From contig JAZDLN010000024.1 of the NCBI GenBank assembly GCA_043801965.1, positions 6,670 through 70,669 on the forward strand: a stretch of 64,000 bases of DNA, read 5' to 3'. Positions within the stretch are counted from its first letter, which is position 1. Each line of letters opens with the position of its first letter. The notes below the pieces were generated by a model. The model saw nothing but the letters and a program-made list of their open reading frames with translations, did no database searches and was not told the origin of the DNA. Shown piece by piece: positions 13,490-42,868 of the stretch. The DNA comes from Candidatus Falkowbacteria bacterium. Lineage in GTDB: Bacteria; Patescibacteriota; Patescibacteriia; Patescibacteriales; UBA12075. A program made the position numbers and the translations under genes.

Positions 13490-13527
13490 TGCTAATGCCT
13501 AACGCCCTAGAGCCTAATGCCTAAAAA
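13490..13527. repeat. right inverted arm (GCCTAA words) flanking four-helix-bundle gene 1
   Basis: gctaatgcctaacgccctagagcctaatgcctaaaaa. Its reverse complement tttttaggcattaggctctagggcgttaggcattagc pairs word-for-word with 13082-13116. Confidence 0.75.
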
Positions 13528-15146: not shown

Positions 15147-15192
15147 TAATGCCTAATGCCTAATGCCTAATGCCTAATGCCTAATGCCTAAT
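15147..15192. repeat. perfect tandem heptamer array (TAATGCC) x6.5
   Basis: taatgcc repeated at 15147, 15154, 15161, 15168, 15175 and 15182, plus taat. On the transcribed minus strand this is (AUUAGGC)n, starting at about the predicted TSS of the Fn3 operon. Confidence 0.95.
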
Positions 15193-15225: not shown

Positions 15226-15251
15226 AACTCTGAATCCCCACCCCTAAAAGC

Positions 15252-15290
15252 AATGCCTAAGGCCTAAAGCCTAACGCCCTAACGCCTAAA
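15252..15290. repeat. GCCTAA word array directly after the giant-gene stop
   Basis: aatgcctaaggcctaaagcctaacgccctaacgcctaaa. Same orientation as the 15147-15192 array, with no complementary arm nearby. Confidence 0.85.
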
Positions 15291-27200: not shown

Positions 27201-30200
27201 ATCCTCGTGCTCGGTATCATCCGTATCCACGCCGGAAATGCCGGCTTTATAGAATATCTTGTAATAACTGAAATTGATATCCGATGCCTGGTCGTGGAAC
27301 TCGACCGTGATCGAAGTCGTGGTCGTAGCGGACATAGTGAGGTTCCCGGGCGCGTCGGGTGCCGCCGTATCGACCTTAAAATTCGGCAAAGTCGAGTTAA
27401 ATTCATCCCAGAAAGAGCAGAGGCCGCTATCGTCGCAGGCGAGCGCCTGCCATTTGTACCCAAGAGAAGAATCGGTCGAGGAGCCGCGATCCGGGATAGC
27501 CGTAATGTTGGCTACGCCCTCATACTGGGGATCGATCATCGATTCTTCGCCGGCAAAACCTAAAAAGCCGGATACGTCCGACTGGTTATTATATTCGGTC
27601 TTGATCCAGCCGGCATCGCGATAAACATTCATTACGCGCAATTCATCCAAAATGCCGATAGCGCAATATTGATTATTGCCATAACCCATGATATTCAAGC
27701 TATTATTGTCATCAGCTCGAGCGGTTTGATTACTGGGGCCGACATTTAATGTGCCGTCAACATATAAAGATGCCTGAGCGCCGTTATAAACAAAAGTGAC
27801 ATAATGCCATTCGCCCGTCCCCGGATTAAAGGTGGAAGATATCTCCGGAGAGGCCACGCCGCCGCGATACTGATTGGGGCCGGTTTGAAGTTCGCTCCAA
27901 AGATGGTAGCCGTAAAAAGAAGGGGATTTGTCGGTTACAAGTTTATTCGCGCTGCCAACGCTTATATTTAACCAATAAGACCAGGTGCGAGGCTGACCTG
28001 GGCCAGTGGCGCTGTCTAAACTACTACCCGTACCGTCCGGTACGATAGCATAATCGCCGGTGCCGTCAAAATCCACGGCCCGGCCGATCTGGCCGGTAAC
28101 CAGCTGCGGATTGCCGTAATCGGTGGCGTTATTATTATTACTGGTCGAATCGTAAAGGATGCTGGTAGCCGGATTTTCGTTCATGTGCTGAATCATGACG
28201 TAATTAGAATCCCAGGTGCCGGTCCGGTTCTGCTGGTCCGCGACCAAAGTAGAATTGCCGTAATAAATATAAATGATCTTGTCGGTCGTGGAAGAAAGGG
28301 AAGTTTCGATCCAAAGCACAAGCTCGCCGGTCGTATTATCGTAATACTCCCGCTCGTAATCTAAGGGGGTAACGCCGTCCGTGTCAATGATCATGATATC
28401 GCCGCCTGTGGACGAAGCGACGTGCCCGCCATTGCCCGTATCGGCCAGATCCGCGTCGGTCGTAGTGGCAAGAACGACGAAAGCGGTTTCGGTCGTTTCG
28501 ACCTGGCTCGCGTTGATCGTGATCATCTTCCGATAGACCCAGTCCGTATTATACCAGGACGTGGTCGAAGCCGACGCGGTCCAGATTTTAGAACTACAGC
28601 CGCCATAAGCGTCGCCCGAGACGCAGGCGGTCCCCGGCTTAGCAGTACTCGTGGTATAAGTGCCGCTCTCGGTTAAAAGCTCGAAATAATAATCGTACTT
28701 GGTCGTAGTGGAGATACTGAGGGCCTCGGCCAAAGCCGACAGATTCACCTGGTTCTCATTCGTCCAGCCCTGATTACTGATCAACGTCGAGTTATCGCTC
28801 ATCCGCTGTTCGTCGGCGGTTACTATCGTATCCGGAACATAAATAGTCGTGGTATCGGGGAGCTCGATAGAAGTGGCTGGCTCAACCGTACCGGAACTTA
28901 ATACTACTTCAGTCGAAGGATCGCTGATCTCGATCTCGAGCGTTTCGTCCTTATTAGCATTAGAATTTACGTCCAGAACGGCGTAAACGCACATACTTGT
29001 GCTGGCACTTAAATTAACCGTGCCACTAAAATCCGCGGTACCGTTCGTATCGCTGAAATTAGTCGAGGTGGCGCCGAACTGCAATTCGTCGCCGTCATAA
29101 CTTTCGCTCCCGCAGTCGTAGGGGTCGCTCGAATCGATATCGTAATATAATCGGATATTTTCGAGGCTGGTATTAGCGTCCACAGTGCCATTTTCCGTGA
29201 TCGTGATGTCATTGACAGTCAGAGTACCGGTAGCCGTATTATTTAATACAAACGCGCCGCCGACGTAATTATCCTCGCTGTTTATATCAATAGTCGAAAC
29301 CTGCGTACCGGTGGCGCTTACGGTCATTTCGGTCGGGATAGTATAAATAATCACGACTCGGCCGGGATTACCGGCTACACCAGGATCATTATTGTTTGCT
29401 CCCCCCGTTCCACCTTGTCCGGCGTTGCCGGCATAATCCGGGTCAGTTGAAGAGCCGGTGGTCCGACCGCTGCCGGAATAGGTGCTGGTAGCCCAGGCGG
29501 TCGCTACGGCCCAACTCGAACCGCCGCCGCCGCCGCCGGCACCGTCAGTAGTTTGATCAGAACACCCACTGCCGCCGCCATAATAGCCGGCACCACCACC
29601 ACCACCACCACCAGAATCACTGCCAACACTCTGGTTATCGCCGCCCCGACCGCCGCCCGGAACACCGCCATTCGTACCGCCGCCGCCATCATCGTAACCA
29701 TTGCCACCAGTTAAAAACGAACCATTCTGACCAACATAATCACAGTTACCCCTAGCGCCGCCAGATGTCTGGGTGCCACCAGCTCCGCCTCTAGCATCAC
29801 CGGCGTTTCCACCAGTACCACCGATCACACCGCCACCAACACCGCCGTCGCCGCCGGGCATAGCCGTATTATCATCACCCCCACCACCGCCGGCGCCGGC
29901 ACCGGCTACGAATAAATAACTAACGCCGCGCCGCACAGCTGAATAACCGCCGCCGCCGCCGCCATCTCCGCCCTGATTTGATCCTCCGGTACCGCCACTA
30001 CCGCCTGTGCCAACATCAATATTCAAGGTTTCCCCCGGGGTAACCGTAATCGTGCCGGTAATGAATCCACCACCACCACCATTGCCGCCATCTGCCGGAT
30101 CATTATCGCATCCGCCGCCGCCGCCGCCGGCACCCCAAACTTTAGCCGTAATACTAGTTACCCCGGCCGGCACGTCAAAAGTATCGGAAGAGGTAAAAAT

Positions 30201-32672
30201 CACCTGGTCGTCGGACGCGATCTGCCACTGCCTAATCTCGGTAAAATCCGTCAATTCCTCATGCGCGCCAATTTCGTCCTCTGTCCAAAAACGTCCCAAT
30301 GCCTTAGCCGGACCCAAGAGATAAAATTCCGGCGAAATATTCGGCGCGTCAAAAGTGTAAGACAAAATATATTCTCGGTCTTTTTCCCAATTAACTCTCC
30401 AGATTATCTCCTGTTCGTCATTGCCGGCCGGATCGGTTTGTCGCCGTGTCATGGATTTCACGACCGCGCCGTCCCGTTTCTGCTCGACCACCTTAAAGCC
30501 GGGAGGTAAAACCTCAATAAAATTACCGCGAAAATCCACCCGGGGCCTTATTTTGAATTTCATCTCGTAATCGGCCCAGGGATAAATACGGGTCGGGCCG
30601 GTCCGCTCGATATCGAAAGGCACGGCTTCGGCCGCACGCACTTCAAAAACGTCCGTAATCTCGTACTCGCCGTTAGAGGTCTGCGCCTTCAGGGTCATTT
30701 TATACTCGCCTTCTTTGCCGGTATCATAAAAACCGAAATAATCCGGGGAATCGATTACGTTATTGGGGCCGCATTCCGGATTTTCCACTATAAGACCGTT
30801 GGTATTGCTTAAATAAACCGTTTCGCCGTCCGGATCGGTTAAGGCGAGTTCTAAATAATCAGCATGGCAGATAGTGTTACCGGTCTCGTCCAGGACCGCC
30901 ATCTGCAGATAAGCGGTCTCGCCCGGAGCGTAAATCGACTTATCGACGTTCAAGGCGAGTACCCCCCAGGTAAACTCCTCCGTATAATCAATATCCGTGC
31001 CCTGGGTCAGGGTTTCACTGCCGATCTTAATCTTTAGACGGTATTTCCCGGGCCGGAACCGCCGTCCGGTTTCCGGCAGGGAGAGTTCGAACTCGCCGTT
31101 GCCTTGATACCTGACGCCGAACCGCATATCTTCCAGCCTCTCCCCGGCTGGGCCGTAAACTTCGGTCTTAATTTCTATACCCTCGTATTCATCCCGGAAT
31201 ACGCTCATAAGTCCGGCTCCCAAACCCTCAAGAGTGCTTCGTTTTTTCTTAAAACGCAATTTCAGCTGCGGCTGTTCGCTGTTTTTAAAATCTTTTTTAT
31301 CGTCAAGAGAGGTTAGTTCAAAATCGGCACTGTAATCGATTACCGGCTCGTCCGATTCTTCTTCCATTATTTCTTCGGTCGTGGTCGCCTCTTCCTCTAT
31401 AAATTCAGACTCTTCCTCTTCCGCGCCCTCCTGCCTATCCGGCAGGCAGGCCTGTCCGATCTCAAGCCAGAGCGCGTCCAAGTAAATCTCAAGCTGTTTG
31501 CCGGCGCGCATCCCGGGCGCGTCCGTATTAATATAATTTACGCGTATTGCCAAATCCTTGATCTCGTCCCAGCCGACCGTCGCGGGCAAAGGGAAAGCGA
31601 AATAGCCGTTATTAAGGGAATTGGCTATGTCCGTCAGCGTATTGATTTCCCCTAAAAGCCGCCAGCCGTTGCCGGTCCGGTATTCTAAGCGGATATAATC
31701 GTCCGCAAAATCGCTCCGCGCGGCCAAAGACACGCGCAGATTCAAGTCTTTTATTTCATTATCCCGGTATTCGGCCGGCACGAAAAAGTCCGAGAAAACC
31801 AGGCTTTGCTTGATCAAATCCGACCCGACCGCGAAATTATTGTCGTCCGCGGGGGGCACTGAACCTGATTCTTCGTCCTCCGGTTCCGGATTAATAAAGC
31901 TATTCAGGTTTTCCTGCGCAAGAACCAACTTTGACCGAAAAAAGTCCAGATAAACAGCCAAAGATCTGATTTTATCCCATATTCGCCCCGTTTCTCCGCC
32001 GCTTCCGCTATCCGTTGCCGCCGACGCGCTTTCCGGCGCGGGCGCCAGGGATGCTTCCGGAGCAGATTCTGCGGCCGGAGTGTCCGCACTCTCCGGGGCC
32101 GACGTCGTTTCCGGATTATCAGCCGAAGTGGAATTACCACTCTCTTCGTTACCGCCCGAAACTTCGCCCGTTCCGTCCGGCGCATTATCCGGATCTACAA
32201 TCTCTACTATACCATCAGTTCCAACAGAATTGTCGTCATCCGTAATTAATTCGTCGGTATCGATCGTATCCATATTATCGTTATTATCTGATTCATCAGC
32301 CGGAATTTCTTCGGCGGTCGGTTCGTCGTTGTCATTTTTACCCGCCGAAGCCTCGGCGGAGGCGGGCGTAATTTCTTCAAAGGTCCGTAATGATATATAG
32401 GCCGAATTTTCAATATTAAACTCCCCGAATTGCGCGTTAGCGCCCAAGTCTTGAACAAAGGTATTTTCCGGATTCTGCCAGACGAATTCACTCGCCCCCC
32501 CTTCTACGGTAAAATTTCCCGGATAAATATTGATCTCGTTCGCGACCGCCTGCACAAAAATAAAACGGCCTTGGGTATAGCCGAAGACCGCCAATAAGAA
32601 CAATATCAACAAGCCTAATTTAACGAATAAATTAGAAAAATATCCTTTGATTTTTTGCATGGGGAAAGGCAT
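15291..32672 (-). CDS. giant (5,793 aa) N-terminally anchored surface protein
   Basis: Single uninterrupted ORF. N-terminal signal-anchor (LFVKLGLLILFLLAVFGY) and an acidic low-complexity region. Two glycine-rich domains, two DUF2341-like + LamG-like modules, five Fn3 modules (four preceded by the GYKWQxxACDD Cys motif). The C-terminal ~520 aa are paralogous to the 8367 gene. An alternative start is ATG 32660. Confidence 0.9.
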   Translation of the reverse strand: MPFPMQKIKGYFSNLFVKLGLLILFLLAVFGYTQGRFIFVQAVANEINIYPGNFTVEGGASEFVWQNPENTFVQDLGANAQFGEFNIENSAYISLRTFEEITPASAEASAGKNDNDEPTAEEIPADESDNNDNMDTIDTDELITDDDNSVGTDGIVEIVDPDNAPDGTGEVSGGNEESGNSTSADNPETTSAPESADTPAAESAPEASLAPAPESASAATDSGSGGETGRIWDKIRSLAVYLDFFRSKLVLAQENLNSFINPEPEDEESGSVPPADDNNFAVGSDLIKQSLVFSDFFVPAEYRDNEIKDLNLRVSLAARSDFADDYIRLEYRTGNGWRLLGEINTLTDIANSLNNGYFAFPLPATVGWDEIKDLAIRVNYINTDAPGMRAGKQLEIYLDALWLEIGQACLPDRQEGAEEEESEFIEEEATTTEEIMEEESDEPVIDYSADFELTSLDDKKDFKNSEQPQLKLRFKKKRSTLEGLGAGLMSVFRDEYEGIEIKTEVYGPAGERLEDMRFGVRYQGNGEFELSLPETGRRFRPGKYRLKIKIGSETLTQGTDIDYTEEFTWGVLALNVDKSIYAPGETAYLQMAVLDETGNTICHADYLELALTDPDGETVYLSNTNGLIVENPECGPNNVIDSPDYFGFYDTGKEGEYKMTLKAQTSNGEYEITDVFEVRAAEAVPFDIERTGPTRIYPWADYEMKFKIRPRVDFRGNFIEVLPPGFKVVEQKRDGAVVKSMTRRQTDPAGNDEQEIIWRVNWEKDREYILSYTFDAPNISPEFYLLGPAKALGRFWTEDEIGAHEELTDFTEIRQWQIASDDQVIFTSSDTFDVPAGVTSITAKVWGAGGGGGGCDNDPADGGNGGGGGFITGTITVTPGETLNIDVGTGGSGGTGGSNQGGDGGGGGGYSAVRRGVSYLFVAGAGAGGGGGDDNTAMPGGDGGVGGGVIGGTGGNAGDARGGAGGTQTSGGARGNCDYVGQNGSFLTGGNGYDDGGGGTNGGVPGGGRGGDNQSVGSDSGGGGGGGAGYYGGGSGCSDQTTDGAGGGGGGSSWAVATAWATSTYSGSGRTTGSSTDPDYAGNAGQGGTGGANNNDPGVAGNPGRVVIIYTIPTEMTVSATGTQVSTIDINSEDNYVGGAFVLNNTATGTLTVNDITITENGTVDANTSLENIRLYYDIDSSDPYDCGSESYDGDELQFGATSTNFSDTNGTADFSGTVNLSASTSMCVYAVLDVNSNANKDETLEIEISDPSTEVVLSSGTVEPATSIELPDTTTIYVPDTIVTADEQRMSDNSTLISNQGWTNENQVNLSALAEALSISTTTKYDYYFELLTESGTYTTSTAKPGTACVSGDAYGGCSSKIWTASASTTSWYNTDWVYRKMITINASQVETTETAFVVLATTTDADLADTGNGGHVASSTGGDIMIIDTDGVTPLDYEREYYDNTTGELVLWIETSLSSTTDKIIYIYYGNSTLVADQQNRTGTWDSNYVMIQHMNENPATSILYDSTSNNNNATDYGNPQLVTGQIGRAVDFDGTGDYAIVPDGTGSSLDSATGPGQPRTWSYWLNISVGSANKLVTDKSPSFYGYHLWSELQTGPNQYRGGVASPEISSTFNPGTGEWHYVTFVYNGAQASLYVDGTLNVGPSNQTARADDNNSLNIMGYGNNQYCAIGILDELRVMNVYRDAGWIKTEYNNQSDVSGFLGFAGEESMIDPQYEGVANITAIPDRGSSTDSSLGYKWQALACDDSGLCSFWDEFNSTLPNFKVDTAAPDAPGNLTMSATTTTSITVEFHDQASDINFSYYKIFYKAGISGVDTDDTEHEDTDLGFIDYNSTTNTTITGLIPETQYVINIWAYDLAGNKTAATEIAVWTPPAPHARARSVEFAAGNYSSSNGLSGGLTNTDLTFSAFNFELAETSAEIKNAYIIFEAQYEAYHLNSGNYTGYNLAFDVCDEPCTADAFSGTGRVLADDNTILSYDEGSSNRIRLLMDVTDEAQLAAYAGDGADLEAQVGYRLETNTATNSISVASARLIVTYSFDGDASTNLTNTVIYPLESKTSGDRGTLRALTGDDCVKSPAGSSNCPLFDYNMDIPELGTKLSQWFQVYGMNDLHGVNDLSISVNIEGTNVDSATYIHEASLGGEQGNLGRISFTGVLGYAENTAQILEYYSTSPGAATTSLIGGEVAETYTAAQSAGTKIRTVSFPIGVLTNGQSTGEASGTAEVYFPENGTGGGIVDVKKAWFRIVSNNYLSGANTVAIATEVGDNSQSTDSVYNYNAGDQVIKPSFNIIHVIPDTDYSELETANATTPKAVTLYTTNSSANQGGVSAELMITYAYTGEDSGYLSSLNLFGGQIAVNPATSSVLASTSASVFTELRGTKTVRAGALLAAYAFSAGDTTMPSTWFTLDANISTGTPVCTNAFYNHDDAVNSFTEYYRSITSALSAVNDAAYTACFSNTNGSDATAGAKTNASWLYTYQWDAPPSNLTQSDWRWYLNADAVAPGAAKAAEKTAISNINLGDILRIRMNIGITSEDLAALNKIFKLQYGEGSDCTAIAEPDWIDADSVAGSGAWRGYNNPNPIDGTAISAVLLSSSDIGGTYEEANNSAGNPNAIAVGEYGEWDWVIYNNAASSTADYCFRMVGSDGSVFYDYLSDSYPKLTTAASNTAPVSPTTLAQYRSNGTTAISNNTWINENTVQVRAAATDVNMSERIALYFEIASSSAGTFTTATSSPGSWCFPGTSWSACPSHIWAATSSLGDYRTTPFTATATIAGLPESAEGYKWQVLACDDGGACSSVWTKYNLTIPNFKVDTVAPSPPGKLTFASSTPTMIALTFGASTTEDNFYRYRIYYREGIAGVTETDSQHTDNNTLLYKNYNNIGTTTVINLSAGTDYVFNIWAYDLAGNKATCTQETVASTSMSSNPPTGYFSFGGTTARTDGSGTVDITIQVDDPDNDNHVRAKIMYKATAVCNAAQFLSGYLDPTIDDDHDNITATYGDPYVDNDYPYQIGTTTGWIITSGASDNFVLFDWLSMTDLAGFEGAYCLGLVTNDGTYDQVATHTVAIDIDNKVPDTPGDLMVESKHYDSVDLRFGDPSADTNFTEYKIFYKEGMAGVTESDMVFDKDDDPNLDWANYGTAATTTISGLNPNTDYVFNIWAYDSYGNKAVAVTEVTVKTNAAPTNISADGQYLDDGVTPITNNSWIDENNVKLKASAHDQDAADLVTFYYQIISATGTYLSALTPPANPCAYGTDYLNCQSLVWAVATTTSVLPADWYDSNWLYRKKITINASEVVADASGFAVLAATVDSDLAAKARSDGYDIIFTDSGGTTTLPYERENYDSNTGELVAWIKTNISSTTDTELYMYYGNSGSTADPATTTGVWDSSYRGVWHLPENVVDESTSIGAHKDSCSYANDGDQYGNNELSALIYRGQDFDGINDYLFIPDDNSLDLADALTMSFWMNGEITYPPAASTSVYTSAGSGTFTVPAGVTSITVKSWGGGGGGGGGADGGGTQTRNTGGAGAGGGFVLSTLSVIPGETLDILVGGGGTGGSYIADASSGGGGGGRSGVNRGAMPLVVAAGGGGGGAGANRVYTSGAPGGPGGGVSGLDGSDSTSADAGDGGTQTAGGAGGTGTNNGTAGSSLTGGAGADGLSGQGADGGGAAGGANGGGAGGLGSVTNSYAGAGGGGAGYYGGGGGGESGAAYSAGAGGGGGSSFATSTASATSTEAGSNRNAGNNDDEDYSGTAGQGGLGGDYLSAGSNGNPGRVVIEFTPAVTIAGKGSNAFQINYNTDSKLSAQINSQAVSATLTSGWHYVTLSYDRLAGGTAELKLYIDGVVAATADYSTAINTNASPIRIGEIFNGTIDELTLSSVARSSAFIQTTYNNQYDVDSFLSFGSEGTVQSFHESVLVVTISDNPDYSSGYKWQVMACDDDSDCTAWAPFNATTPNFKIDTTDPSPPGQLIEASKNSNSVTLNFGAATDEDNFTEYRIFYSTSSPVMEIDDEHNDTDLDNKYYNSTTDTTVSGLNSNTTYYFNIWAYDIMGHKASSTVTMVETEESLSTPGAIFYTKNDRAIYYQVWTGTGWGIEQSSGNLTGASDNIRHIKTLRSDDGGKVGILFRTWDGTNQEWWGTVYRFGADNFVDAERLGAVQTDGTNNQLINGCLGSLSGSEFFAVRSTSTTGALAFSWNPADGWTDEGIIPGTTGSGKMGVMNGCELIRRPDTDNYLLITFDDDADVGSMYYYGGAAYDNSAGAWTAWTENASDETDTDNYVGQAYFDPSSNTRGAIYYSNSVTNNYAYAKYFTCNDSSINYLTAEPSPATSPADWGNDFVHGEFAVNPGSTGIAYFAGRDTGGELNVYKVNASTPTIAWTASTNGDNISAGSLYSETNDAQKPFAIEFYKSGKGVVAGAAASAAARPYYSVINATTNVLSATSSIEGATLDQWVRLRFYKDPNGDEFLAVAQNDNVDYTTVFWDSGTEHFYNSGAQAWSARSAAAAVFDRDDECASYAYAKYNSGPNQPANLYQATSTYPMANQTWAASSTIKFTAGATDYDTSEVVTLYLQLIPTNDTFTTSTDESTFNACAGTVNWDNCNSKIWTIGTSGAGDYSYTPYTATATINSIASSTTGYKWQVIACDDENECSTWKAYNATIPNFYVDTEAPSAPGALNPTAKTSYSVTLTFGAATDEPLVSFSRYRIFYATSTPVAETHTEWIDTDLNFRNYNGTANTVVTGLSSSTLYYFNIWAYDRAGNKASSSIVSTTTNAVANIVQTSFLLENDDGANVNSNTAEVAASTTLSGLHLGERLNVRLQIENSGGDSAGNRVYKLQFEDYSHATGTWIDVGAATAISHNFGLSGANNDDVISSKAAFHIPTFKIGKWHENTNLTAAYTLGVAEFTELVFVVDTSHAATGTTYRLRLYNNTDGTTLSGYDNYPVFSTVGSETKRYSKGFYASPPLTTANLTYFLDPEGYDDVLTDDANRDSATSTAQYPVILFATKHTNATDAASSTWNGQSSVAPSGSNVVLQVFRFGSTNAWVTVDTETGAGANTDFTLEGTVNSSLSDYYAAGNWIYWRVYQSSGSESLRTDHYSANFAPPIPNTEQIHYRWRKDDGTETTATWLEAEDTGSATLGPQIGKGSTTRLRLAVVNIGGGAANYAYRLEYASSTDGCATPPSYWAAVPITAGGEDFEMATSSYFDDDDNTTATTSNPEGYTFVDGRMVEDSSNTSAVISLPENRYTEIEYMIAVTDNASDAGTYCFRVTNSGAELDAYDIYPIVTLSGNTNNAPVFTLGPSDNGSASTAPTVYGDPVNFTATATDADGNNYYLAVCQTAAASAGLDGAPTCPGGQWCISGAAASGAGASCSTTTLTSVEDNNWFAYACDKVPGFGLAKCSVMSQGGATASGSPFTINHPPVFTAATTTDNFKNPGGTFTVTAYATDTDVSGGADTLSLYVCTSNSASFSGCTDGTYCSEAASTSPNASCSFATTTPAPAGNWGYYAFVYDSHGLAAAANSHTNTYTVNNAAPTIGSFFLNDGDDIGLNLKDDADTIVSTIGGSIQDLNGCTDLDSVIGTIYMSEEENTCDDDPSNCYQIPYNTGATTTCTIACDPTDLTRASTTCTAAFKYFAVPTDDVYESNPWKDYNWISYILLNDGVNLAASTSGGVELGTNLALNIVEDTIDFGTWAAGQNTGMNNSTTTVENAGNSPIDVEVYGTTMFSSPPAGYDISVTQIKFNNINFNYVFETNTLDTVANPKPIELFAPRATSTAGSADDVYWGIGIPFLAVPANYFGENTFTVWIDEDDWN
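21010..22880 (-). other. DUF2341-like + LamG-like module 2, with glycine-rich domain 2 (21375-22262) inserted inside the LamG fold
   Basis: WYDSNWLYRKKITINASEV...LPYERENYDSNTGELVAWIKTNI...LYMYYGN. Then DFDGINDYLFIPDDNSLDLADALTMSFWMN. Then FTVPAGVTSITVKSWGGGGGG...GNPGRVVIEF. Then the rest of the LamG: SGWHYVTLSYDRLAGGTAELKLYIDGV...GTIDELTLSSVARSSAFIQTTYNNQYD. Confidence 0.6.
27560..28565 (-). other. DUF2341-like + LamG-like module 1 of the giant protein
   Basis: WYNTDWVYRKMITINASQV...LDYEREYYDNTTGELVLWIETSL...IYIYYGN (DUF2341 pattern). Followed by DFDGTGDYAIVPDG...GEWHYVTFVYNGAQASLYVDG...LDELRVMNVYRDAGWIKTEYNNQSD (LamG/concanavalin-like pattern). Confidence 0.65.
29345..30195 (-). other. glycine-rich domain 1 of the giant protein
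   Basis: TFDVPAGVTSITAKVWGAGGGGGG...(poly-G/GGxGG tracts)...GNPGRVVIIY. From memory this matches the Gly_rich (PF12810-like) pattern. Confidence 0.6.
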
Positions 32673-34162: not shown

Positions 34163-35110
34163 ATGACCTACCTATCGTCAATCATAAAAACCCGCATAAA
34201 AGAAAAACTCGCCAAGCTCAACAAACTCCGCCCTCTGCCGAAATCCGCGGTGCAAAAATTACGGGAAAAATTTCAGATAGAAATGACCTATAACTCAAAC
34301 GCGATTGAAGGCAATTCCCTGACCCTAAAAGAAACCTTTTTGGTTATCAATGAAGGGATAACTGTAAAAGGAAAGCCCCTAAAAGACCATCTGGAGGCGA
34401 AAGATCACCACGCCGCGCTGGACTACTTGTACGACCTTGTAGATAATAATAAAAAACATACTGTTTCCGAGATATTGATACGGAATTTGCACCAAATCAT
34501 CATCCGGGAAACTGATAAAGAGTGGGCCGGGAGATATAGAAATGCCAACGTCATTATCGGCGGCGCTGAACACACGCCGCCGGACGCACTCGTTGTGCCG
34601 CAAAAAATGCAAGAACTGATAAGCTGGTTAAGTTCACAAAAAAATAAAGCGAATATCGTTGAACTGGCCGCCCTATTGCATCACAAATTAGTGCACATCC
34701 ACCCGTTTTTTGACGGCAACGGCAGAACTGCGCGCCTGACGATGAACCTATTACTCATGCAAGCCGGTTATCCCCTTGTCATTATCCTAAAAAACGACCG
34801 CAAAAAATACTATGACACACTCTCAAGGGCGGACAACGGCAAATATGAACCTCTGATAAAATTCATCGCCCAACTAACGGAACGCTCGCTTGATATCTAT
34901 TTAAAAACCCTTACGCCCGCGGCTGAAAAAGGGGAGAAATTTATGCTACTCTCGGAAATATCCAAGACCATCCCCTTTTCCGCGAAATACCTGAACCTGC
35001 TCGCGCGACAGGGAAAACTGGAAGCACACAAAGAAGGCCGCGATTGGCTGACATCAAAAAAAGCGGTCGAACGATACCTGAAAAACAGACTGCGGAAGAG
35101 GAAAAAATAA
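34163..35110 (+). CDS. Fic family protein (class II, N-terminal inhibitory motif) fused to a C-terminal excisionase-type HTH
   Basis: 315 aa. Fic motif HPFFDGNGRTARL. Inhibitory (S/T)xxxE(G/N) motif in TYNSNAIEGN. C-terminal MLLSEISKTIPFSAKYLNLLARQGKLEAHKEGRDWLTSKKAVERYL resembles an HTH_17/excisionase domain. Confidence 0.9.
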   Translation: MTYLSSIIKTRIKEKLAKLNKLRPLPKSAVQKLREKFQIEMTYNSNAIEGNSLTLKETFLVINEGITVKGKPLKDHLEAKDHHAALDYLYDLVDNNKKHTVSEILIRNLHQIIIRETDKEWAGRYRNANVIIGGAEHTPPDALVVPQKMQELISWLSSQKNKANIVELAALLHHKLVHIHPFFDGNGRTARLTMNLLLMQAGYPLVIILKNDRKKYYDTLSRADNGKYEPLIKFIAQLTERSLDIYLKTLTPAAEKGEKFMLLSEISKTIPFSAKYLNLLARQGKLEAHKEGRDWLTSKKAVERYLKNRLRKRKK

Positions 35111-35122
35111 ATTTCAACGACA

Positions 35123-35159
35123 GAAGCCGAGCTTCCAATAGGAAGCTCGGCTTCTTTTT
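35123..35159 (+). terminator. rho-independent terminator of the Fic gene
   Basis: GAAGCCGAGCTTCC-aata-GGAAGCTCGGCTTC followed by TTTTT. Perfect 14-bp stem. Confidence 0.88.
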
Positions 35160-35172
35160 GAGGGCAACCAGG

Positions 35173-35338
35173 CAAAAAAACGGAGAAATTATTTTCTCCG
35201 CCTCAGCCCTCACCCGGCCCGGCATTCGCCGGGCCACCCTCTCCGGAATCGGAGAGGGGGTAAGGGGGTGAGGAAGGGGGCATGGGGTGTTCGGGCCAAC
35301 AAAAAAACGGAGTCCCGAGTACTCGGGATTCTCCGTTT
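35173..35338. repeat. composite GC-rich repeat, copy A
   Basis: Modules in order: terminator-type hairpin 35174-35200, GGCCCGGC-attc-GCCGGGCC hairpin 35216-35235, CCCTCTCCG-gaat-CGGAGAGGG hairpin 35237-35258, G-run block 35256-35287, terminator-type hairpin 35301-35337. 35173-35235 is identical to 40368-40430. 35236-35338 is about 97 percent identical to 40471-40572. An extra hairpin copy lies at 35396-35421. Confidence 0.9.
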
Positions 35339-35449
35339 AAGATTATCAAATGAACTATCGCCGATCAATGCCTCTCGCCCTACTCGCTTCAGATTCCCCC
35401 TCTCCGGAATCGGAGAGGGGGTGAGGAAAGCGAAGAGGCAGGAGGGGGA

Positions 35450-37567
35450 TTATTCCCTAAGCTCCTCAATCGCGGCCAGGATCAAAGGGTAAACAAGCGC
35501 CTGGGCAGCGCAATTATCAATCCAATCCTTTTTGTCGTCGTCAGCCACGTTGTCCGGTTCGCCCCTAAGGGCGCAACCATCCACGCGCGCGATCGCGCGA
35601 TTTTCAAGGATATTCAGGGCCTGATCGATCTTGCCTTTGTCAATTTTTTTCAAGGCGTTGTTGATTTTTTTTGTCAGTTTGTCGCGCTGTTCATCTTTGC
35701 GGAAATCGTCGTCCGCCAGGCCGTTGATCGCCGCGAGTGCGAATTGCAGGTAGTCGGTCGCCGTATAATCGTTGGCGATCGCCACGATTGTCACGATCGC
35801 GGGCGCGCTTGAAAGAAGGCCGTCATTGACGACGAGGCTCACGACGTATTCGCCGGCGAGATCGGCCGTAAAAACTGGGTTGACCGCTGTGGAATCGGAA
35901 ATCGCGGCGTTTGAACCCTCGGGTACGGACACGAGACTCCAGCTGTAAGTCAGAGAATCGCCATTCGCGTCGTGACTCCCGCTCCCGTCAAGGTAAACCG
36001 TTTCGCCGATAACAACGCTCTGGTTCCCGCCCACGTCTGCGACCGGAGCCGCGTTTTCAAAAGTAACCGTAACAGTATCCGGCTCGCTGTCGGCATAACC
36101 GTCGTTTACAACCAATTCAAAAACGTAGCTGCCGTAGAGGTCGGCCGTAAATTGCGGCTGGGCCGCGTGCTCATCGGATAAAACGGCGCTGCTGCCACCG
36201 GGAACGGATACTACCGTCCAAGTATAGGTGAGATCATTGTCTTCCGGGTCACTCGACTGCGTACCGTCTAAAGCAATGACCGTCCCGGCCTGCGTGACGG
36301 CCTGGTCCGGTCCGGCGTTGGCGGTCGGCGGATTATTGACCGAGGTGACAGTGACGGTCACCGGCGCGCTCGCGCTCCCAAGGCTGTCAGCCACGACCAA
36401 CTCAAAAACATAAGCGCCGGGCAGGTCGGGCGTAAACGAAGGGCTAACCGCAGTCGGGTCGTCCAAGCTTACGCTTGATCCGGCCGGAGCCGACACGAGT
36501 GTCCAGGTGTAGGTCAGGGGATAATTCTCTTCCGGGTCCGAACTCGCGGATGCGTCCAAAGTCGTCACTACACCCGGCGTTGCCGTCTGATCGCCGCAAG
36601 TAGTGGCGGTGGGGGGTTGGTTGATGGGGGTGAGGAGGTAGGCGCTGTAACTATCTTGAACTGCATCATAGTTCATTACAATAATCTGCCCTTTGTTATT
36701 TAGACAACCCACTGAGACCCATGGATCGCTAAAACTAAAAAATTCATTTAAATTAGTTACTTCTCCATTCAACCACAGAAAAATACGATTTTCACCACCA
36801 ACAACAAAACTCCCTACTATCTGCGATGCATTGTTAATTGCATAAGCAAAAGACTCATTACCCAAACCTAAATCTTGCAGAGTGTTATTAACCCAAAGAA
36901 AGGCAAACTCTATACTACCATCATCTAAGGCGCCTACAACTTGCTTATTATCATTGATACCGTGCGCCTCTCCCTGAATAATAGTAATAGTACCATTTTC
37001 CCAAAGAAAACCAGTGCCGTCGCCAGTTTCTCCCACAATATGACCAAAATTATTTATATCCCATGGATCATAATAACCACCAGTTAAAACGGTTAAACTA
37101 CCGTTTTCCCATAAATAAGCGGTATAATCGTCGATATAAACATATCCGGCAATCTGATTATTGTCATTGATGGCTACTGGTATAAAGAGGCCGAGATCCG
37201 TAATTACACCATTATCCCAAATAAAACCATGTTGATCGCCGGAGATATATGAATATCCAATAACTCTTCCTGAATTATTTATACCCTCGGGGTAAATATC
37301 ACCAAGGTATGTTGTTGCGTTGGTTGTACTATCCCAAATAAAACCACCTCTGATTTCTGGATTATTTTTACTATAGTACGAACCTACGATTTGTCCCGTA
37401 TCATTAATACTGCCAACAGAAACATCACAATCATCCGGAAAATTTCCGATCTTCGTAACCGTATAGCCAGTAGCCGGTGGATCGGCGGTGGCCCCGGCCA
37501 AACCGGAAAACGCCAGGCAAAAAATCAGGGCCAAAACCAGGGCGCTGAAAATTTTTGTTGTTTTCAT
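35450..37567 (-). CDS. secreted protein: HAF-family extracellular repeats + three PKD-like domains + C-terminal helical domain
   Basis: The track ORF (to 37906) is trimmed to ATG 37567, preceded by AAGGAGAAAAAG. This gives MKTTKIFSALVLALIFCLAFSGLAGA (signal peptide). Repeats such as GINNSGRVIGYSYISGDQHGFIWDNGVITDLG fit the HAF repeat pattern. There are three ~95-aa units of the form PPTA..G.DQ...G..V.LDGS.S.DP..D.LTY.W.LVS.P.GS. Confidence 0.8.
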   Translation of the reverse strand: MKTTKIFSALVLALIFCLAFSGLAGATADPPATGYTVTKIGNFPDDCDVSVGSINDTGQIVGSYYSKNNPEIRGGFIWDSTTNATTYLGDIYPEGINNSGRVIGYSYISGDQHGFIWDNGVITDLGLFIPVAINDNNQIAGYVYIDDYTAYLWENGSLTVLTGGYYDPWDINNFGHIVGETGDGTGFLWENGTITIIQGEAHGINDNKQVVGALDDGSIEFAFLWVNNTLQDLGLGNESFAYAINNASQIVGSFVVGGENRIFLWLNGEVTNLNEFFSFSDPWVSVGCLNNKGQIIVMNYDAVQDSYSAYLLTPINQPPTATTCGDQTATPGVVTTLDASASSDPEENYPLTYTWTLVSAPAGSSVSLDDPTAVSPSFTPDLPGAYVFELVVADSLGSASAPVTVTVTSVNNPPTANAGPDQAVTQAGTVIALDGTQSSDPEDNDLTYTWTVVSVPGGSSAVLSDEHAAQPQFTADLYGSYVFELVVNDGYADSEPDTVTVTFENAAPVADVGGNQSVVIGETVYLDGSGSHDANGDSLTYSWSLVSVPEGSNAAISDSTAVNPVFTADLAGEYVVSLVVNDGLLSSAPAIVTIVAIANDYTATDYLQFALAAINGLADDDFRKDEQRDKLTKKINNALKKIDKGKIDQALNILENRAIARVDGCALRGEPDNVADDDKKDWIDNCAAQALVYPLILAAIEELRE

Positions 37568-37880
37568 CTTTTTCTCCTTCTTCTTTGGGTTGGATTGGGA
37601 TTTTTGGTTCGTGGTTCTCGTCATTTCCCCCTCCCGCTCGCTATCGCTCGCCCCCTCCCCAAGCTTGGGGAGGGCCGGGGTGGGGGTAATTTCAATTTTC
37701 AAAGACCCGCAATAATCATCGCCTCCTTTCTCTCGAAAAATAAAAACCGCCTCGCGCGCGTTCAGCCGTATTATCTCGTCCGGATTTTGAGCGGTAAATC
37801 CATTTAAGCACAGGGGGGGGGATAAAGTCAAGGGGGATAAAAAATCGCCAGAAAAGACAGTTTTTGCTATACTTGATAAT

Positions 37881-38862
37881 ATGATCAAGAAACCAATAAA
37901 CAACAAAGGCGAAATTATTATTTATCAGGATAAACCGGGCGAAAAGGCCGTTGATGTTCGCCTGGAAAACGACACGATTTGGCTAAATTCACATCAAACA
38001 GCCGAAATTTTTAACATTGATAGAACCGGTATAGTCAGGCATATTTCAAATGTGTATAAAACAGGCGAATTAGATAAAAATTCAACCTGTGCAAAAATTA
38101 CACAGGTTGCCAGGGATGGGAAAATGAGAGAAATCGACTATTATAATTTAGATATGATAATATCGGTCGGCTACCGCATTAATTCAAAAAAGGCCACCCG
38201 GTTCAGGATTTGGGCGACAAATATTCTAAAAAAATATTTGACAGAGGGGTATGTTGTCAATAAAAAAACGATCGCCGAAAATTATGACAAATTCCTCAAA
38301 ACCGTTGAAGACATAAAAAGCCTTTTACCGGCCGGCAAGAATCTGGATAATAAAGATATTTTGGAACTGATCAAAACTTTCGCCGACACCTGGCTATCGC
38401 TTGACGCTTATGATAAAGACAAGCTGGAAACTAAAAAAATAACCAAGCGCGGAATCAGATTGACGGCCGCTGAATTAAGCGCGGCCATTTCTGATTTTAA
38501 AAACGCGCTAACCGGAAAAAAAGAAGCGACGGAAATTTTCGCCCGGGAAAGATCAAGCGGTAGTCTTGAGGGCATTATCGGAAACGTCATGCAGAAATTC
38601 GGCGGCCATGACCTTTATCCCGGTCTGGAAGAAAAAAGCGGCTCATCTTCTCTATTTCATAGTTAAAAACCATCCCTTCATTGACGGCAACAAGCGCTGC
38701 GGGGCGTATTCTTTTATTTGGTTTTTAAGAAAAGCAAGGCTTCTGGATATTAAAACCATTTCTCCGGCCGCTTTGACCGCGATTACGCTCCTGATTGCGT
38801 AGAGTCGGCCCAAAGACAAAGACCGGCTGACGACTTTAACGGCGAAAATGCTCAAAAAATAG
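37881..38862 (+). pseudogene. decayed RhuM-family / Doc (Fic-fold) fusion gene: +1 frameshift in an A6 run plus an in-frame TAG
   Basis: N-terminal IIIYQDKPGEKAVDVRLENDTIWLNSHQTAEIFNIDRTGIVRHISNVY...DMIISVGYRINSKKATRFRIWATNILKKY fits the RhuM pattern. The frame breaks at A6 (38632-38637); removing one A restores ...PGLEEKAAHLLYFIVKNHPFIDGNKRCGAY (Doc motif HxFxDGNKR). TAG at 38800-38802 interrupts ...AITLLIA*SRPKDKDRLTTLTAKMLKK, which then runs to TAG 38862. Confidence 0.75.
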
Positions 38863-39245
38863 GCAGCGAATTTAGCTTTTACATAAAAAAGACCTGATTT
38901 TCCGGGTCCTTTTTAGTGTGGTTTTATTTATCCCTCCGCCGGCAGGCGGGGGGGGGTCGCGGCGTCCAAGGGCGAGGGAACTAGAGTAAAACGTTTTTAG
39001 TAGGTGAGGGTAATAAAAAAATAGTGGGGGTAAATATTGACGGGTGAATATTCACCCGGTCCATCTCTAGTCTTATATAATCGGATACAATTTAACATGG
39101 TTAAAATAAAAAATATAATGATATGAAAATAATTACTGAAATTAGCCATTATACCTCAAAAATCAATAATTTAGTTGATTTTTCGTATCATAAATGATGT
39201 GAAAATTTATGCTAAAAAAATTAAAAAAAGGTAATCCCGGGCAAC

Positions 39246-39273
39246 AAAAAAACGGAGAATGTTTTCTCTCCGT
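39246..39273 (-). terminator. rho-independent terminator of the 39300 gene (CAACAAAAAAACGGAG family)
   Basis: Minus strand reads AACGGAGAGAA-aacat-TCTCCGTT followed by TTTTTTGTTGC. Same lead-in as the four terminator hairpins inside the composite repeats. Confidence 0.75.
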
Positions 39274-39299
39274 TCAAATATTTCTAAAAAATCTAAAAA

Positions 39300-40313
39300 C
39301 TATTTCCCCGTATTAAGATGCCCATAAACCATTCCCGATATCTCGCCGATCAATTTTTCCGCCTGTTCGATCTTTTCATTTTTAAACAAAGTCATGATGC
39401 AAAGAATATACGGTTTATCAGTGTAAATAATCCCGCAGTCATGAAGCTGGGAAATATCTTCTCCTCCGTAATGGCCGAACTTATGGGCAATCGCTGTTTC
39501 CGGCGGCAAACCGGCTTTAAGACCGTTTTTATACGTACTTTCCGCCAATAGAGCCAGGGCTTTTTCCGAATTCCCGCGGCTTAAAAAAGAAGCGTTGAAA
39601 AGCACGCGGAACATCGAAGCATAAGACTTAGCCGATACGCGGTTATTCTCATCTTCTTCCGTGGGCATGATAAGATCAATATCGGCTGCTATTTTCGTTA
39701 AATATTCGCCGCTAACTTCCGTGTTAAGATATTTTTTCAGGAGGTCCTTGGAAGTATTGTCCGAATAGACGATCATCTTATAGATGAGATCATAAATAGT
39801 ATAAACCTCTCCGGCTATAAGGGTCGTGGCCGGATCATAAAGGTTAGTGGTGGAGGCGAATTCTCCCGAATAAGTTACTTGCCGCTCCATAATGCCGGGA
39901 TATTCCTCTGATAGTTTCAAGAAAGCGATCAACATGGGGATTTTCAAAAGGCTGGCCGGATTGAATTTTTCCCGCTCTTCGATCCCCATCCAGGGGCCGT
40001 TTACGAGATCCCGATAATAGACCGCGGCTTTTTCGATATGGCCTTGTTTTTTCCGACCCTCTATTAAAGTATTAATCTTAGCCTTCAATTCTTTTAAGGG
40101 AGTAATCTCCGTATCGCCCATTATCTCGCATTCAAGGAGCGGATTTATATATTCATAACCGCCGGCCCGCAACTCATATACGGCTTTTTCTTCCGGTAAA
40201 ACCGCCTTTTCCGCGGACGGGTTTTTAAACAAAAATCCGCGAATGAACCAGCCGGCTAAAAACATAACGGCAGCCGTTAAAAATACCAGGATTATTAATT
40301 TTTTCTTTGTCAT
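39300..40313 (-). CDS. serine hydrolase, class A beta-lactamase-related, N-terminally anchored
   Basis: 337 aa. N-terminal TM. SxxK (ASLLKIP), SDN (VYSDNTS), KxG (HKFGH) in the expected order and spacing. Confidence 0.7.
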   Translation of the reverse strand: MTKKKLIILVFLTAAVMFLAGWFIRGFLFKNPSAEKAVLPEEKAVYELRAGGYEYINPLLECEIMGDTEITPLKELKAKINTLIEGRKKQGHIEKAAVYYRDLVNGPWMGIEEREKFNPASLLKIPMLIAFLKLSEEYPGIMERQVTYSGEFASTTNLYDPATTLIAGEVYTIYDLIYKMIVYSDNTSKDLLKKYLNTEVSGEYLTKIAADIDLIMPTEEDENNRVSAKSYASMFRVLFNASFLSRGNSEKALALLAESTYKNGLKAGLPPETAIAHKFGHYGGEDISQLHDCGIIYTDKPYILCIMTLFKNEKIEQAEKLIGEISGMVYGHLNTGK

Positions 40314-40367
40314 ATATAAATAAGAATAATATAATTATATCCCAGCGGATAAAATCGGGCAAGACAA

Positions 40368-40572
40368 CAAAAAAACGGAGAAATTATTTTCTCCGCCTCA
40401 GCCCTCACCCGGCCCGGCATTCGCCGGGCCCCCCTCTCCGATTCCGGAGAGGGTACGGTTTGTACGATTCCCTCTCTCCGGAATCGGAGAGGGGGTAAGG
40501 GGGTGAGGAAAGGGGCATGGGGTGTTCGGGCCAACAAAAAAACGGAGTCCCGAGTACTCAGGATTCTCCGTT
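40368..40572. repeat. composite GC-rich repeat, copy B
   Basis: Same modules as copy A, plus an inserted hairpin with a flipped loop (CCCCTCTCCG-attc-CGGAGAGGG, 40431-40453). G-run block at 40491-40522. Terminator hairpins at 40369-40395 and 40536-40571. Starts 8 nt after the stop of the 40580 gene. Confidence 0.9.
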
Positions 40573-40579
40573 AACTTAT

Positions 40580-41491
40580 TTATAGATTTTTCCGAGCCCA
40601 ATCCAGAAATTCCCGTTTTCGGCTTTCGTGAATCACTAGAATTTCATAATCGCGCTTATAAATCTTCTCGATCGGCTTCGGATTTATCTCCCGGATATTT
40701 TTCGGGTCGTAGGGGTCGAGCGCGAAGAACTTGAAACCCATTTTTTTCGATATGCCGATTACCGGCGCCGAATCCCAGGGGGTCTCATAACTGGTTCCCA
40801 AAAGCAAGGCGCCGAACACCCCTTTCCAGAGCTGCGAAAACGACAACCCGATGCTCCCGCCGATGACGTTAAGGCTTTTAAAAAGAGGCTTGGCCGTATC
40901 CAGGGCGATGATCTTCCGGGAAACCTCGGAATACCTGTTAGGCGGCTTGCGCAATAGTATGTATTGCCCCTTAAGCGGGCGATTGGGATCAATCGCGAGT
41001 CTTCTCTTTTCCATCCGGGCCGAACCGTTATCCAATAGCTCCACTACGTCCGATCCAGGCCAAAGGAAAAATATCTCATCCGTGTTTATATCGCCTACGA
41101 AAGCGGCCACGATCTCTATTTCGACCGCCACGGCGATCATGGTGGATACGCCGAAAGACTGCCCTCGCTCAAAACCGTCCGAGCCGTCCAGGGGATCGAT
41201 CGTAATGTAAACCTTGCGCTTCGTAGCGTGCGGCCGGCGAAATTTTTCCTCTTCGGCGATAATACCGAAATCCGGCAGAAGCTTCCGGAACACGTTAAGA
41301 TAGATCTCCTGAGCTTTGAGGTCGGCGCTCGTGACGATATCGCGCGCCTTGCCGGTTTCGCTCGCCTTGGTTTCGCTCGTAAACACGTAACGTTCCTGCC
41401 TGATGGCGTTCATGGCTTTAATAACCGCCGTTTTCATGATATGGCCCAGCATATTCCGGTTTACGCCCAGGATATTTTCCAATTCGTTCAT
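40580..41491 (-). CDS. inositol monophosphatase / FBPase-superfamily protein
   Basis: The track ORF starts at TTG 41548. I prefer ATG 41491 (MNELENILG...), preceded by AAAGAGGAGAAACGGC. Motifs: IIAEEE, ITIDPLDGSDGF (DPxDGT-type), WDSAP (WDxAA-type). Confidence 0.75.
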   Translation of the reverse strand: MNELENILGVNRNMLGHIMKTAVIKAMNAIRQERYVFTSETKASETGKARDIVTSADLKAQEIYLNVFRKLLPDFGIIAEEEKFRRPHATKRKVYITIDPLDGSDGFERGQSFGVSTMIAVAVEIEIVAAFVGDINTDEIFFLWPGSDVVELLDNGSARMEKRRLAIDPNRPLKGQYILLRKPPNRYSEVSRKIIALDTAKPLFKSLNVIGGSIGLSFSQLWKGVFGALLLGTSYETPWDSAPVIGISKKMGFKFFALDPYDPKNIREINPKPIEKIYKRDYEILVIHESRKREFLDWARKNL

Positions 41492-41626
41492 GCCGTTTCT
41501 CCTCTTTAGATAGTTTAAAATGTGCAAATCTTTACTTAATATTAGCAACCGTAAAGGAAAAAGTCAATCATTAAAAGCAAAAGGAGCTTATTTTAAGCCC
41601 CTTGTTTAAAAGAACGGTTTTATTAC

Positions 41627-42748: not shown

Positions 42749-42773
42749 AATGATTATATTATTTATATTTTAT

Positions 42774-42784
42774 ATTATAACACA
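42774..42784 (-). promoter_or_regulatory. putative extended -10 element for pilin gene 2
   Basis: Minus strand reads TGTGTTATAAT, about 26 nt upstream of ATG 42748 and immediately downstream of the 30-bp hairpin. Confidence 0.45.
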
Positions 42785-42788
42785 TTTT

Positions 42789-42868
42789 GTATTTAGTATA
42801 TAGTATTTTGTATTTAGCGAAGCGGTATTCAATTTTTTGCTAAATACAAAATACTATATACTAAATAC
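42789..42868. repeat. perfect 30-bp inverted repeat (GTATTTAG word family) between pilM-like stop and pilin promoter
   Basis: gtatttagtatatagtattttgtatttagc (42789-42818), 20 nt, then gctaaatacaaaatactatatactaaatac (42839-42868). The right arm ends on the first base of the stop triplet 42868-42870. Confidence 0.95.

Follow-up and report, generated by a model that had tools for sequence, protein, structure and literature searches.

What is the GC-rich, hairpin-bearing element that occurs in two copies within 5.5 kb on contig JAZDLN010000024.1 of a Candidatus Falkowbacteria genome? We analysed it within a 64-kb stretch of that contig (the window), inside which all copy counts were made. An earlier, sequence-only reading of the same stretch had raised a small RNA (sRNA) gene and a repeat like a miniature inverted-repeat transposable element (MITE) as candidates, and had named a mere local duplication of 3' intergenic DNA as the outcome that would leave neither standing. 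Our result comes close to this last scenario. The two copies, here called A and B, are probably a local, recombination-derived duplication of a 3'-intergenic terminator-palindrome module that lies at both ends of a strain-variable block of genes.

Copies A (35162-35338, 177 nt) and B (40357-40572, 216 nt) are direct repeats. Aligned globally, they are identical at 170 of 174 positions (97.7%) apart from a single 40-nt indel, and the sequence flanking A is unrelated to that flanking B. A repeat search returned 90% identity between 35162-35258 and 40357-40453, including an exact 63-mer that is the longest uninterrupted match between the copies, and 98% identity between 35239-35337 and 40474-40572; the 63-nt identity and the roughly 97% identity of the second block that had been noted from the sequence alone were thus both recovered. 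Given assembler k-mer sizes, a common run of 63 nt is unlikely to have generated an assembly artefact. Each copy does lie downstream of a minus-strand gene, as had also been noted: B is 7 nt past the stop codon of an IMPase-like gene, and A is 112 nt past the stop codon of a gene for a PKD-domain surface protein and 52 nt from the convergent stop codon of a gene for a Fic protein with a helix-turn-helix (HTH) domain.

Read on the minus strand, copy A consists of a terminator (T1), a C-rich spacer, two hairpins (hp1 and hp2), the segment GGGTGAGGGCTGAGG and a second terminator (T2); copy B has the same layout with an extra, inverted hp1 and a spacer. The order proposed in the sequence-only reading, namely a C-rich segment with perfect hairpins between two terminators, agrees with both the terminator scan and the folds. 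Both strands of A and B fold well beyond shuffled sequences (z about -8), as palindromic DNA would, and this indicates no strand preference.

The terminators form a small family of their own. T1 of A (35301-35338, minus strand) is predicted to be an intrinsic terminator downstream of the PKD gene, with the nested hairpin AACGGAG-AA-[TCCCGAGTACTCGGGA]-CTCCGTT followed by U7, and T2 of A (35173-35203, minus strand) has the hairpin CGGAGAAA-ATAA-TTTCTCCG, also followed by U7. In B, T1 (40536-40572, minus strand) begins 7 nt past the IMPase-like stop codon, and a predicted terminator hairpin at 40369-40398 (minus strand) corresponds to T2. A fifth, T3 (39242-39275, minus strand), lies downstream of a serine-hydrolase gene and reads CGGAGAG-loop-TCTCCG-U7-GTTGCCC. 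The terminator scan listed T1 and T2 of both copies as well as T3, all on the minus strand; T1 and T2 fold as predicted, and T1, T2 and T3 each have the GC-rich hairpin and U-run just downstream of a gene that are expected of an intrinsic terminator. The terminator string CTCCGTTTTTTTG occurs five times in the 64 kb, against 0.28 expected, and all five sites lie within 35173-40547, where they coincide with the two terminators of A, the two of B, and T3. Like ordinary tandem intrinsic terminators, T1, T2 and T3 are GC-stem hairpins with U7 placed directly 3' of genes, but they differ in belonging to one sequence family (CGGAGA-loop-TCTCCG-U7-GTTG) that is part of a duplicated unit, and in that the T1 loop encloses a second palindrome. 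T1 and T2 would be expected to terminate and insulate the transcription of genes ending at the module. The only promoter called at the element is that of the downstream serine-hydrolase gene, for which the last six bases of B (TTGCCC, 40357-40362) are also the predicted -35 box.

Between the terminators lies the palindrome core. The hairpin hp1, CCCTCTCCG-ATTC-CGGAGAGGG, occurs four times in the window and in none of 100 shuffles: at 35237-35258 (minus), 35398-35419 (minus), 40432-40453 (plus) and 40472-40493 (minus, with one mismatch), that is, A has one, B has two of opposite orientation and one stands alone. In A it is the polypyrimidine/polypurine hairpin CCCTCTCCG-GAAT-CGGAGAGGG, a unit of a widespread family described below. 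The solo copy (35392-35426), which abuts a GGTGAGG tail and lies between the PKD stop codon and copy A, is absent from the sequence-only reading. The two hairpins of B form an inverted doublet (40432-40493, with an 18-nt spacer between 40432-40453 and 40472-40493) that can be folded as one long hairpin. hp2 of A (35216-35235; GGCCCGGC-GAAT-GCCGGGCC on the minus strand) sits between hp1 and a CCTCACCC tail (35208-35215), and GGGTGAGGGCTGAGG on the minus strand can pair with an upstream CCTCACCC. On the other side of hp1, a plus-strand G-tract (35256-35287, GGGGGTAAGGGGGTGAGGAAGGGGGCATGGGG) includes a GGGTGAGG tail and matches the canonical G-quadruplex motif, as do only two other sites in the 64 kb; its minus strand is the C-rich spacer, about 50 nt long with about 58% C and 10% G by manual base count. 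A variant unit, CCCTCCCC-AAGCTT-GGGGAGGG-CCG-GGGTGGGGG, lies upstream of the PKD gene, in a divergent intergenic region (37653-37686). All five hairpins of this kind in the 64 kb sit in 35112-40578, as does every perfect GC-rich polypyrimidine/polypurine hairpin, and shuffles yield none. A degenerate GC-rich hairpin (CCCTCCGCC-GGCA-GGCGGGGGG, with GGTGAGGG about 50 nt downstream) at 38932-39010, between a RhuM-Fic remnant and an orphan promoter, may be another, eroded unit of the same type.

The single indel between the copies has a readable junction. The 40 nt present in B (40441-40480) and missing from A comprise the extra inverted hp1 copy and its spacer; they read ATTC-CGGAGAGGG-spacer-CCTCTCTCCG and correspond exactly to what separates the direct CTCTCCG arms in the inverted doublet. 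The hairpin of A accordingly joins the perfect 5' arm of B's first hairpin to the loop and 3' arm of B's second. The sequence-only reading was right about the additional hairpin of B, with its inverted loop, and hp1 is indeed found there in opposite orientations, but the suggestion that the hairpin module can flip is superseded: a deletion by slippage or recombination explains the indel, and inversion is unnecessary.

Comparison with related genomes shows how variable this locus is. The strain-variable segment (35112-40578) is bounded by the stop codons of two conserved, convergent genes, the Fic-HTH gene (34163-35110, plus strand) and the IMPase-like gene (40580-41548, minus strand). A lies at one end of this 5.5-kb block and B at the other; from A onwards the order is the solo hp1, the PKD gene (35450-37567, minus strand; true start at 37567), a frameshifted RhuM-Fic gene (37881-38802, plus strand), an orphan promoter segment, the serine-hydrolase gene (39300-40313, minus strand; its best match in the protein search reaches only 47% identity) and B. 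The IMPase-like protein has a 100% identical counterpart in a Candidatus Falkowbacteria metagenome-assembled genome and an 89% identical one in RIFOXYB2_FULL_47_14 (L140). The window is homologous to L140 (83-91%) from 51235 down to 40579, where the IMPase stop codon marks the limit. In L140 the gene order is IMPase, one composite, Fic gene, pilin and giant protein; the Fic protein encoded there shares only 28.6% identity with the Fic-HTH protein of the window. On the opposite side, the Logan contig L143 (from SRR22388213) encodes a Fic-HTH protein with 96% identity to that of the window. It can be aligned to the window at 90.7% identity from the pilin gene as far as the Fic stop codon (35111); past this codon the two diverge completely, and L143 has no composite there.

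The L140 composite consists of a terminator nearly identical to T2, a C-rich tract, a hairpin, an inverted hp1 doublet (CCCTCTCCA-ATTC-TGGAGAGGG) and a G-rich tract, and B is its positional orthologue. Because L140 has the doublet, the doublet is ancestral. Both L140 hairpins have A:T where all four window hairpins have G:C (CCA/TGG versus CCG/CGG at the top of the stem); this double change between genomes indicates that the pairing of hp1 has been kept and that the variant is genome-specific. The more distant L141 has a terminator and then GC-rich hairpins after its IMPase gene. Neither T2 nor hp2 is conserved in L140 and L141, so that the unit from T1 to T2 is not kept as a whole, and the hp1 pattern does not recur in the other 58 kb of the window or elsewhere in L140, L141 and L143. 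B and its L140 orthologue are only about 78% identical over the part that can be aligned, against 97.7% between A and B, so that the second copy arose, or was homogenised, after the two lineages split.

The most economical account of these observations is that an ancestral module lay directly after the IMPase-like gene, as it does in the sister genomes, and was duplicated recently in the window lineage by recombination at the module itself, in a direction and by a mechanism that we infer. Unequal crossing-over could have done this, as could single-crossover integration between divergent alleles or with incoming DNA that had the module in common. The module would have served as a patch of homology, leaving one copy at each end of the variable block, and slippage from one direct CTCTCCG arm to the other would then have removed 40 nt from copy A and produced the apparent flipped hairpin. 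The GC-rich palindromes, with their potential to form a hairpin, cruciform, G-quadruplex or triplex, may make the site recombinogenic. The C-rich tract could offer a Rho entry site and hence a Rho-type fail-safe termination. A simpler version, in which one island is flanked by repeats, was dropped because the block includes pieces with orthologues at the same locus in the relatives.

What kind of sequence is hp1? A genome scan for CCCTCTCCG-N4-CGGAGAGGG, with one genome per species, found it in at least 120 loci from many phyla, the matches listed including Chloroflexota, Armatimonadota, Cyanobacteria, Acidobacteriota, Gemmatimonadota, Myxococcota, Actinomycetota and, within the candidate phyla radiation (CPR), Candidatus Buchananbacteria. 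The surmise that the modules belong to an interspersed repeat family is borne out. Among the matches listed, the loops vary freely and the flanks are conserved: GG[GT]GAGG downstream and/or CCTC[AC]CC upstream, within 70 nt, accompanies 108 of the 128 sites with full flanks (84%), compared with 4.4% of comparable windows from the same loci, and the modal gap between hairpin and tail is 6-8 nt. The conserved motifs are strand-symmetric palindromes that occur in either orientation across genomes. In Buchananbacteria (L017) the same order, CCTCACCC - hp2 - hp1, occurs with another hp2 sequence and without flanking terminators, which indicates that the palindrome core is separable from T1 and T2. 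The hp1 unit is also present in 21 stretches of viral contigs, a scan of which gave no match to the genome-specific hairpin with the ATTC loop. A metagenome scan with the core 20-mer GCCGGGCCGGGTGAGGGCTG gave matches only within coding sequence of high GC content, all of them attributable to chance.

By motif, the closest relative of hp1 so far described is the Escherichia coli BoxC or PIT element, and family membership is at the level of the motif. Both halves of the motif appear together in Holder et al. (2015) and in Kaplan et al. (2016). BoxC/PIT corresponds to the triplex motif TM_ECO, with the pattern CCCTCNCCC-N3-6-GGGNGAGGG-N3-GGGNGAGGG (Holder et al. 2015, PMC4666352). TM_ECO occurs 3610 times in 262 proteobacterial genomes, always between genes, without strand bias and at times as inverted pairs; its loci are far more rearranged between strains than control loci, and partial deletions of paired motifs leave one stable hairpin (PMC4666352). 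Earlier tests found no promoter or terminator activity for PIT/BoxC, and no transposase or integrase is associated with it (PMC4666352). The same motif has also been read as a switch between G-quadruplex, hairpin and duplex (Kaplan et al. 2016, PMC5100583).

The resemblance extends over several features. The window has a GC-rich polypyrimidine/polypurine hairpin (CCCTCTCC.../...GGAGAGGG) followed by a third segment of the GGGTGAGG type; all its copies are strictly intergenic, either orientation is found, and inverted pairs occur in B and in L140. As with TM_ECO, the G-rich strand has predicted G-quadruplex potential, the locus differs between close strains (homology ends at the IMPase stop codon for L140 and at the Fic stop codon for L143), and a paired motif has been partly deleted to one hairpin, the 'palindrome effect'. 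Nevertheless, hp1 narrowly misses the strict TM_ECO pattern, since the G:C pair at the top of its stem is inverted (CCCTCTCCG/CGGAGAGGG versus CCCTCNCCC/GGGNGAGGG) and the GGGTGAGG tail follows at a distance of 7 nt in A and B, and directly in the solo copy, rather than after 3 nt. The unit at 37653-37686 is closer. The locus also differs from TM_ECO in that hp2 sits between hp1 and the opposite tail, that the motifs are embedded between two intrinsic terminators, and that the host belongs to the CPR and has a low copy number in the sampled DNA, at one locus only.

A canonical TM-type unit is present in another Falkowbacteria genome, L144, where a gene for a 121-aa DUF559 protein (Vsr-like endonuclease fold) lies between two such units in inverted orientation, at 15260-15292 and 15714-15780. 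The left unit reads CCTCACCCC-AA-CCCTCTCCC-AAA-GGGAGAGG and the right one hp1 - hp2 - GGGGGTGAGGGGG. Homologues of the DUF559 gene lie about 30-110 nt from motif clusters in L036 (about 3727) and L107 (about 700-800), and 2.2 kb off in L118; these loci had been chosen for carrying the hairpin, and the association is only suggestive. An Anaerolineae contig (L030, 1472-2389) carries five multi-hairpin units closed by CCTCACCCC/GGGGTGAGG, with start-to-start distances of 209, 209, 269 and 209 nt.

Several points weigh against a local duplication. Copies were counted in the 64-kb window only, and further composites elsewhere would favour a mobile element. Older paralogues under gene conversion would give an equal A/B identity. 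A 143-nt orphan promoter segment (39108-39228) and a promoter at 37784-37838 lie inside the block and are common to relatives, so that its history goes beyond one insertion and the duplication event cannot be uniquely reconstructed. Terminator use and the lack of an RNA product are predictions only, and because hp1 misses the strict published TM_ECO pattern, its link to BoxC is a resemblance of motifs, not demonstrated homology. The mobile alternative is that the composite, or the hp1 doublet, was inserted independently downstream of the PKD and IMPase genes by a transposase encoded elsewhere (e.g. a RAYT-like Y1 enzyme), in the way of a MITE or a REPIN. We consider this rather unlikely, even though hp1 is a multi-copy palindrome found in both orientations, the inverted doublet in B and L140 folds REPIN fashion as a single long hairpin, the family is genome-specific in its stem top and extends to viral contigs, and the small DUF559 gene of L144 is flanked by two canonical inverted units. 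A MITE should have terminal inverted repeats and a target-site duplication, but the flanks of A and B have no common duplicated target, and no terminal inverted repeat is seen beyond the 10-nt AAACGGAGAA, a product of the two similar terminators. The window has just two full copies, both in one 5.5-kb locus; related structures stand at the orthologous site and only there in L140 and L141, B itself being orthologous to the L140 composite, and the pattern is missing elsewhere in the window and these contigs, so the high dispersed copy number of REP or REPIN sequences is not seen. No transposase gene was seen in the segment, and none of the scanned window proteins (64 kb of genome) has a transposase-like domain. 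The likeness to REP, BIME and REPIN-RAYT systems lies in short palindromes that occupy intergenic sites 3' of genes in either orientation, in inverted doublets that can be folded as a long hairpin and in a genome-specific variant; the differences are that hp1 lacks the GTAG head, that no RAYT gene is known at this locus, that the hp1 motif is common to several phyla whereas REPs are species-specific, and that it occupies one locus only in about 117 kb of Falkowbacteria DNA. The earlier suggestion of a MITE-like repeat is thus not upheld, given the lack of target-site duplications, the confinement of both copies to one hypervariable locus and the orthology of B with the sister composite.

Direct repeats at both ends of a segment that is absent from relatives might also be the duplicated attachment site (attL/attR) of a genomic island placed by a site-specific recombinase, and the adjoining Fic gene, which has an excisionase-type HTH_17 domain and belongs to a family that is 82-96% identical across CPR classes among the matches listed and occurs in changing contexts, including beside a TraG/TrwB-like gene, fits such a picture. 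We nonetheless regard an island as improbable, since the segment has no integrase or recombinase gene in it or beside it and the block holds the relatives' own pieces (39108-39228 and 37784-37838), so that it is not one foreign insert. For an att core, moreover, a repeat of 177-216 nt would be long. Islands with attL/attR, or IS26-like translocatable units, resemble this locus in having two direct copies that end a strain-specific block of genes, but the present locus lacks a recombinase or transposase, its repeat is a terminator-palindrome module, and its block of genes is mosaic and includes ancestral pieces. About equally doubtful is gene conversion, by which older paralogous copies would have been kept alike with no recent duplication, their resemblance then being silent on the origin of the block. 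Palindromic repeats are prone to templated repair, and A and B are much closer to each other than B is to its orthologue; however, conversion tracts would have to cover the whole 177 nt, including both terminators, and end sharply on both sides, and L143, the nearest strain with the same Fic gene, has no copy beside that gene. Very unlikely, finally, is an sRNA gene or a structured 3' untranslated region, that is, a C-rich RNA of about 130 nt, made from T1 to T2 or by read-through of T1, that would act in trans or stabilise the upstream mRNA. The strong fold (z about -8), the predicted terminator at the end of the unit and the compensatory change in hp1 would suit such an RNA, but of the own promoter, own terminator and conserved unit expected of an sRNA gene only the terminator is present: a sigma-70-like promoter is lacking from T1 to the core, the fold of the plus strand is just as strong, L140 and L141 conserve neither T2 nor hp2, the motifs that are conserved are palindromic and occur in either orientation across genomes, and E. 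coli PIT/BoxC showed neither promoter nor terminator activity in earlier tests (PMC4666352). A scan of the whole window at Rfam gathering thresholds gave no match. With no promoter from T1 to the core, no Rfam family and no T2 in the sister genomes, the discrete C-rich sRNA of about 130 nt that had been proposed finds no support here. Among rejected Rfam candidates, a DUF1874 match in A scored 22.7 bits against a cut-off of 42 and was not reproduced in B, and miRNA-precursor matches in permissive scans were generic, sub-threshold long-hairpin matches; all were taken as chance.

Some further candidates were ruled out. A tRNA-linked att site does not apply, no tRNA or tmRNA genes having been found; the ends do not fit the RYYYAAC/GTTRRRY of an integron attC; and the copy density, at one locus only, is far too low for a DNA-uptake sequence.

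Local duplication of the module by recombination therefore remains the account that we favour, and on present evidence the locus is an ordinary, if neat, case of repeat-associated locus plasticity. Its wider meaning lies in the family to which the palindromes appear to belong. BoxC/PIT/TM-like motifs, studied mainly in proteobacteria and noted in cyanobacteria, occur also in viral contigs and in the genomes of CPR bacteria (Patescibacteria). As in E. coli, they lie here in a hypervariable locus, and in this case the junction of a deletion is legible base by base. If the turnover of gene blocks is causally linked to the motifs, this bears on the exchange of surface-protein and toxin-like genes in very small CPR genomes. 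For the window itself, a candidate sRNA or MITE is removed from the list. A more far-reaching idea, which we think unlikely, is that the module is a dedicated recombination site for gene-cassette exchange at convergent CPR gene ends, or that the CCTCACCC / CCCTCTCC-GGAGAGGG / GGGTGAGG motif marks the ends or targets of an unrecognised mobilisation system. It draws on the two copies at the ends of the variable block and on the inverted units around the DUF559 endonuclease-like gene of L144, and, if true, would provide a mechanism for the unexplained strain-variability around BoxC/TM motifs.

Other features of the block and its surroundings may be recorded here. The non-coding segment 39108-39228 shares 86-90% identity with the stretch that precedes the L140 Fic gene (L140 12379-12521). 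It carries a near-consensus plus-strand promoter, TTAACA-16-TATAAT (39092-39119), that points into the 3' end of the hydrolase gene, which makes it an orphan promoter left by gene replacement. The promoter upstream of the PKD gene, CTTGAC-N17-TGCTTAAAT (37784-37838, minus strand), is conserved with L141 11857-11908. The overlapping segment 37735-37802, tried as an sRNA candidate, folds no better than shuffles (z +0.68) and is explained by this conserved promoter. In the RhuM-Fic gene (37881-38802, plus strand), a RhuM/Bro-N-type open reading frame (ORF) at 37881-38666 is followed in another frame by the C-terminus of a Fic domain with HPFIDGNKR (38566-38802), and the frameshift reflects either a pseudogene or a sequencing error.

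The protein with Fic and excisionase-type HTH_17 domains at 34163-35110 is unusually conserved, the listed matches being 82-96% identical and including Parcubacteria, Magasanikbacteria, Uhrbacteria, Buchananbacteria, Doudnabacteria and Falkowbacteria; 7344 proteins match at E<=1e-30. Its neighbours vary between genomes, and in L144 it lies near a gene for a TraG/TrwB-like coupling protein. The gene looks horizontally mobile.

A second family of palindromes, GTAGAGACGCGATTAATCGCGTCTCTAC, occurs in L140 at 10980-11007, just past the IMPase gene, and in identical form at the very end of contig L143 (2216-2243); variants are found in L141 at about 11045-11100. The family is absent from the window and has a GTAG head as in REP elements. 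These palindromes may break assemblies.

Outside the variable segment, the minus-strand ORF at 15291-32672 encodes 5793 aa with internal repeats, and its L140 orthologue (13623 onward) encodes 5896 aa. The first ~360 nt of the two ORFs are 83% identical and other alignable blocks about 67-69% identical at the nucleotide level, compared with 83-91% for neighbouring genes; the ORF encodes a fast-evolving giant surface protein beside type IV pilus genes. Intergenic heptamer repeats of the type CCTAA(A/T)G, tandem or inverted, lie between minus-strand genes upstream of the giant gene (10434-10481, 11676-11757, 13499-13547, 15152-15191 and 15246-15290). In two distant spacers (5445-5551 and 42765-42872), AT-rich repeats of the GTATTTA type form mutually inverted copies.

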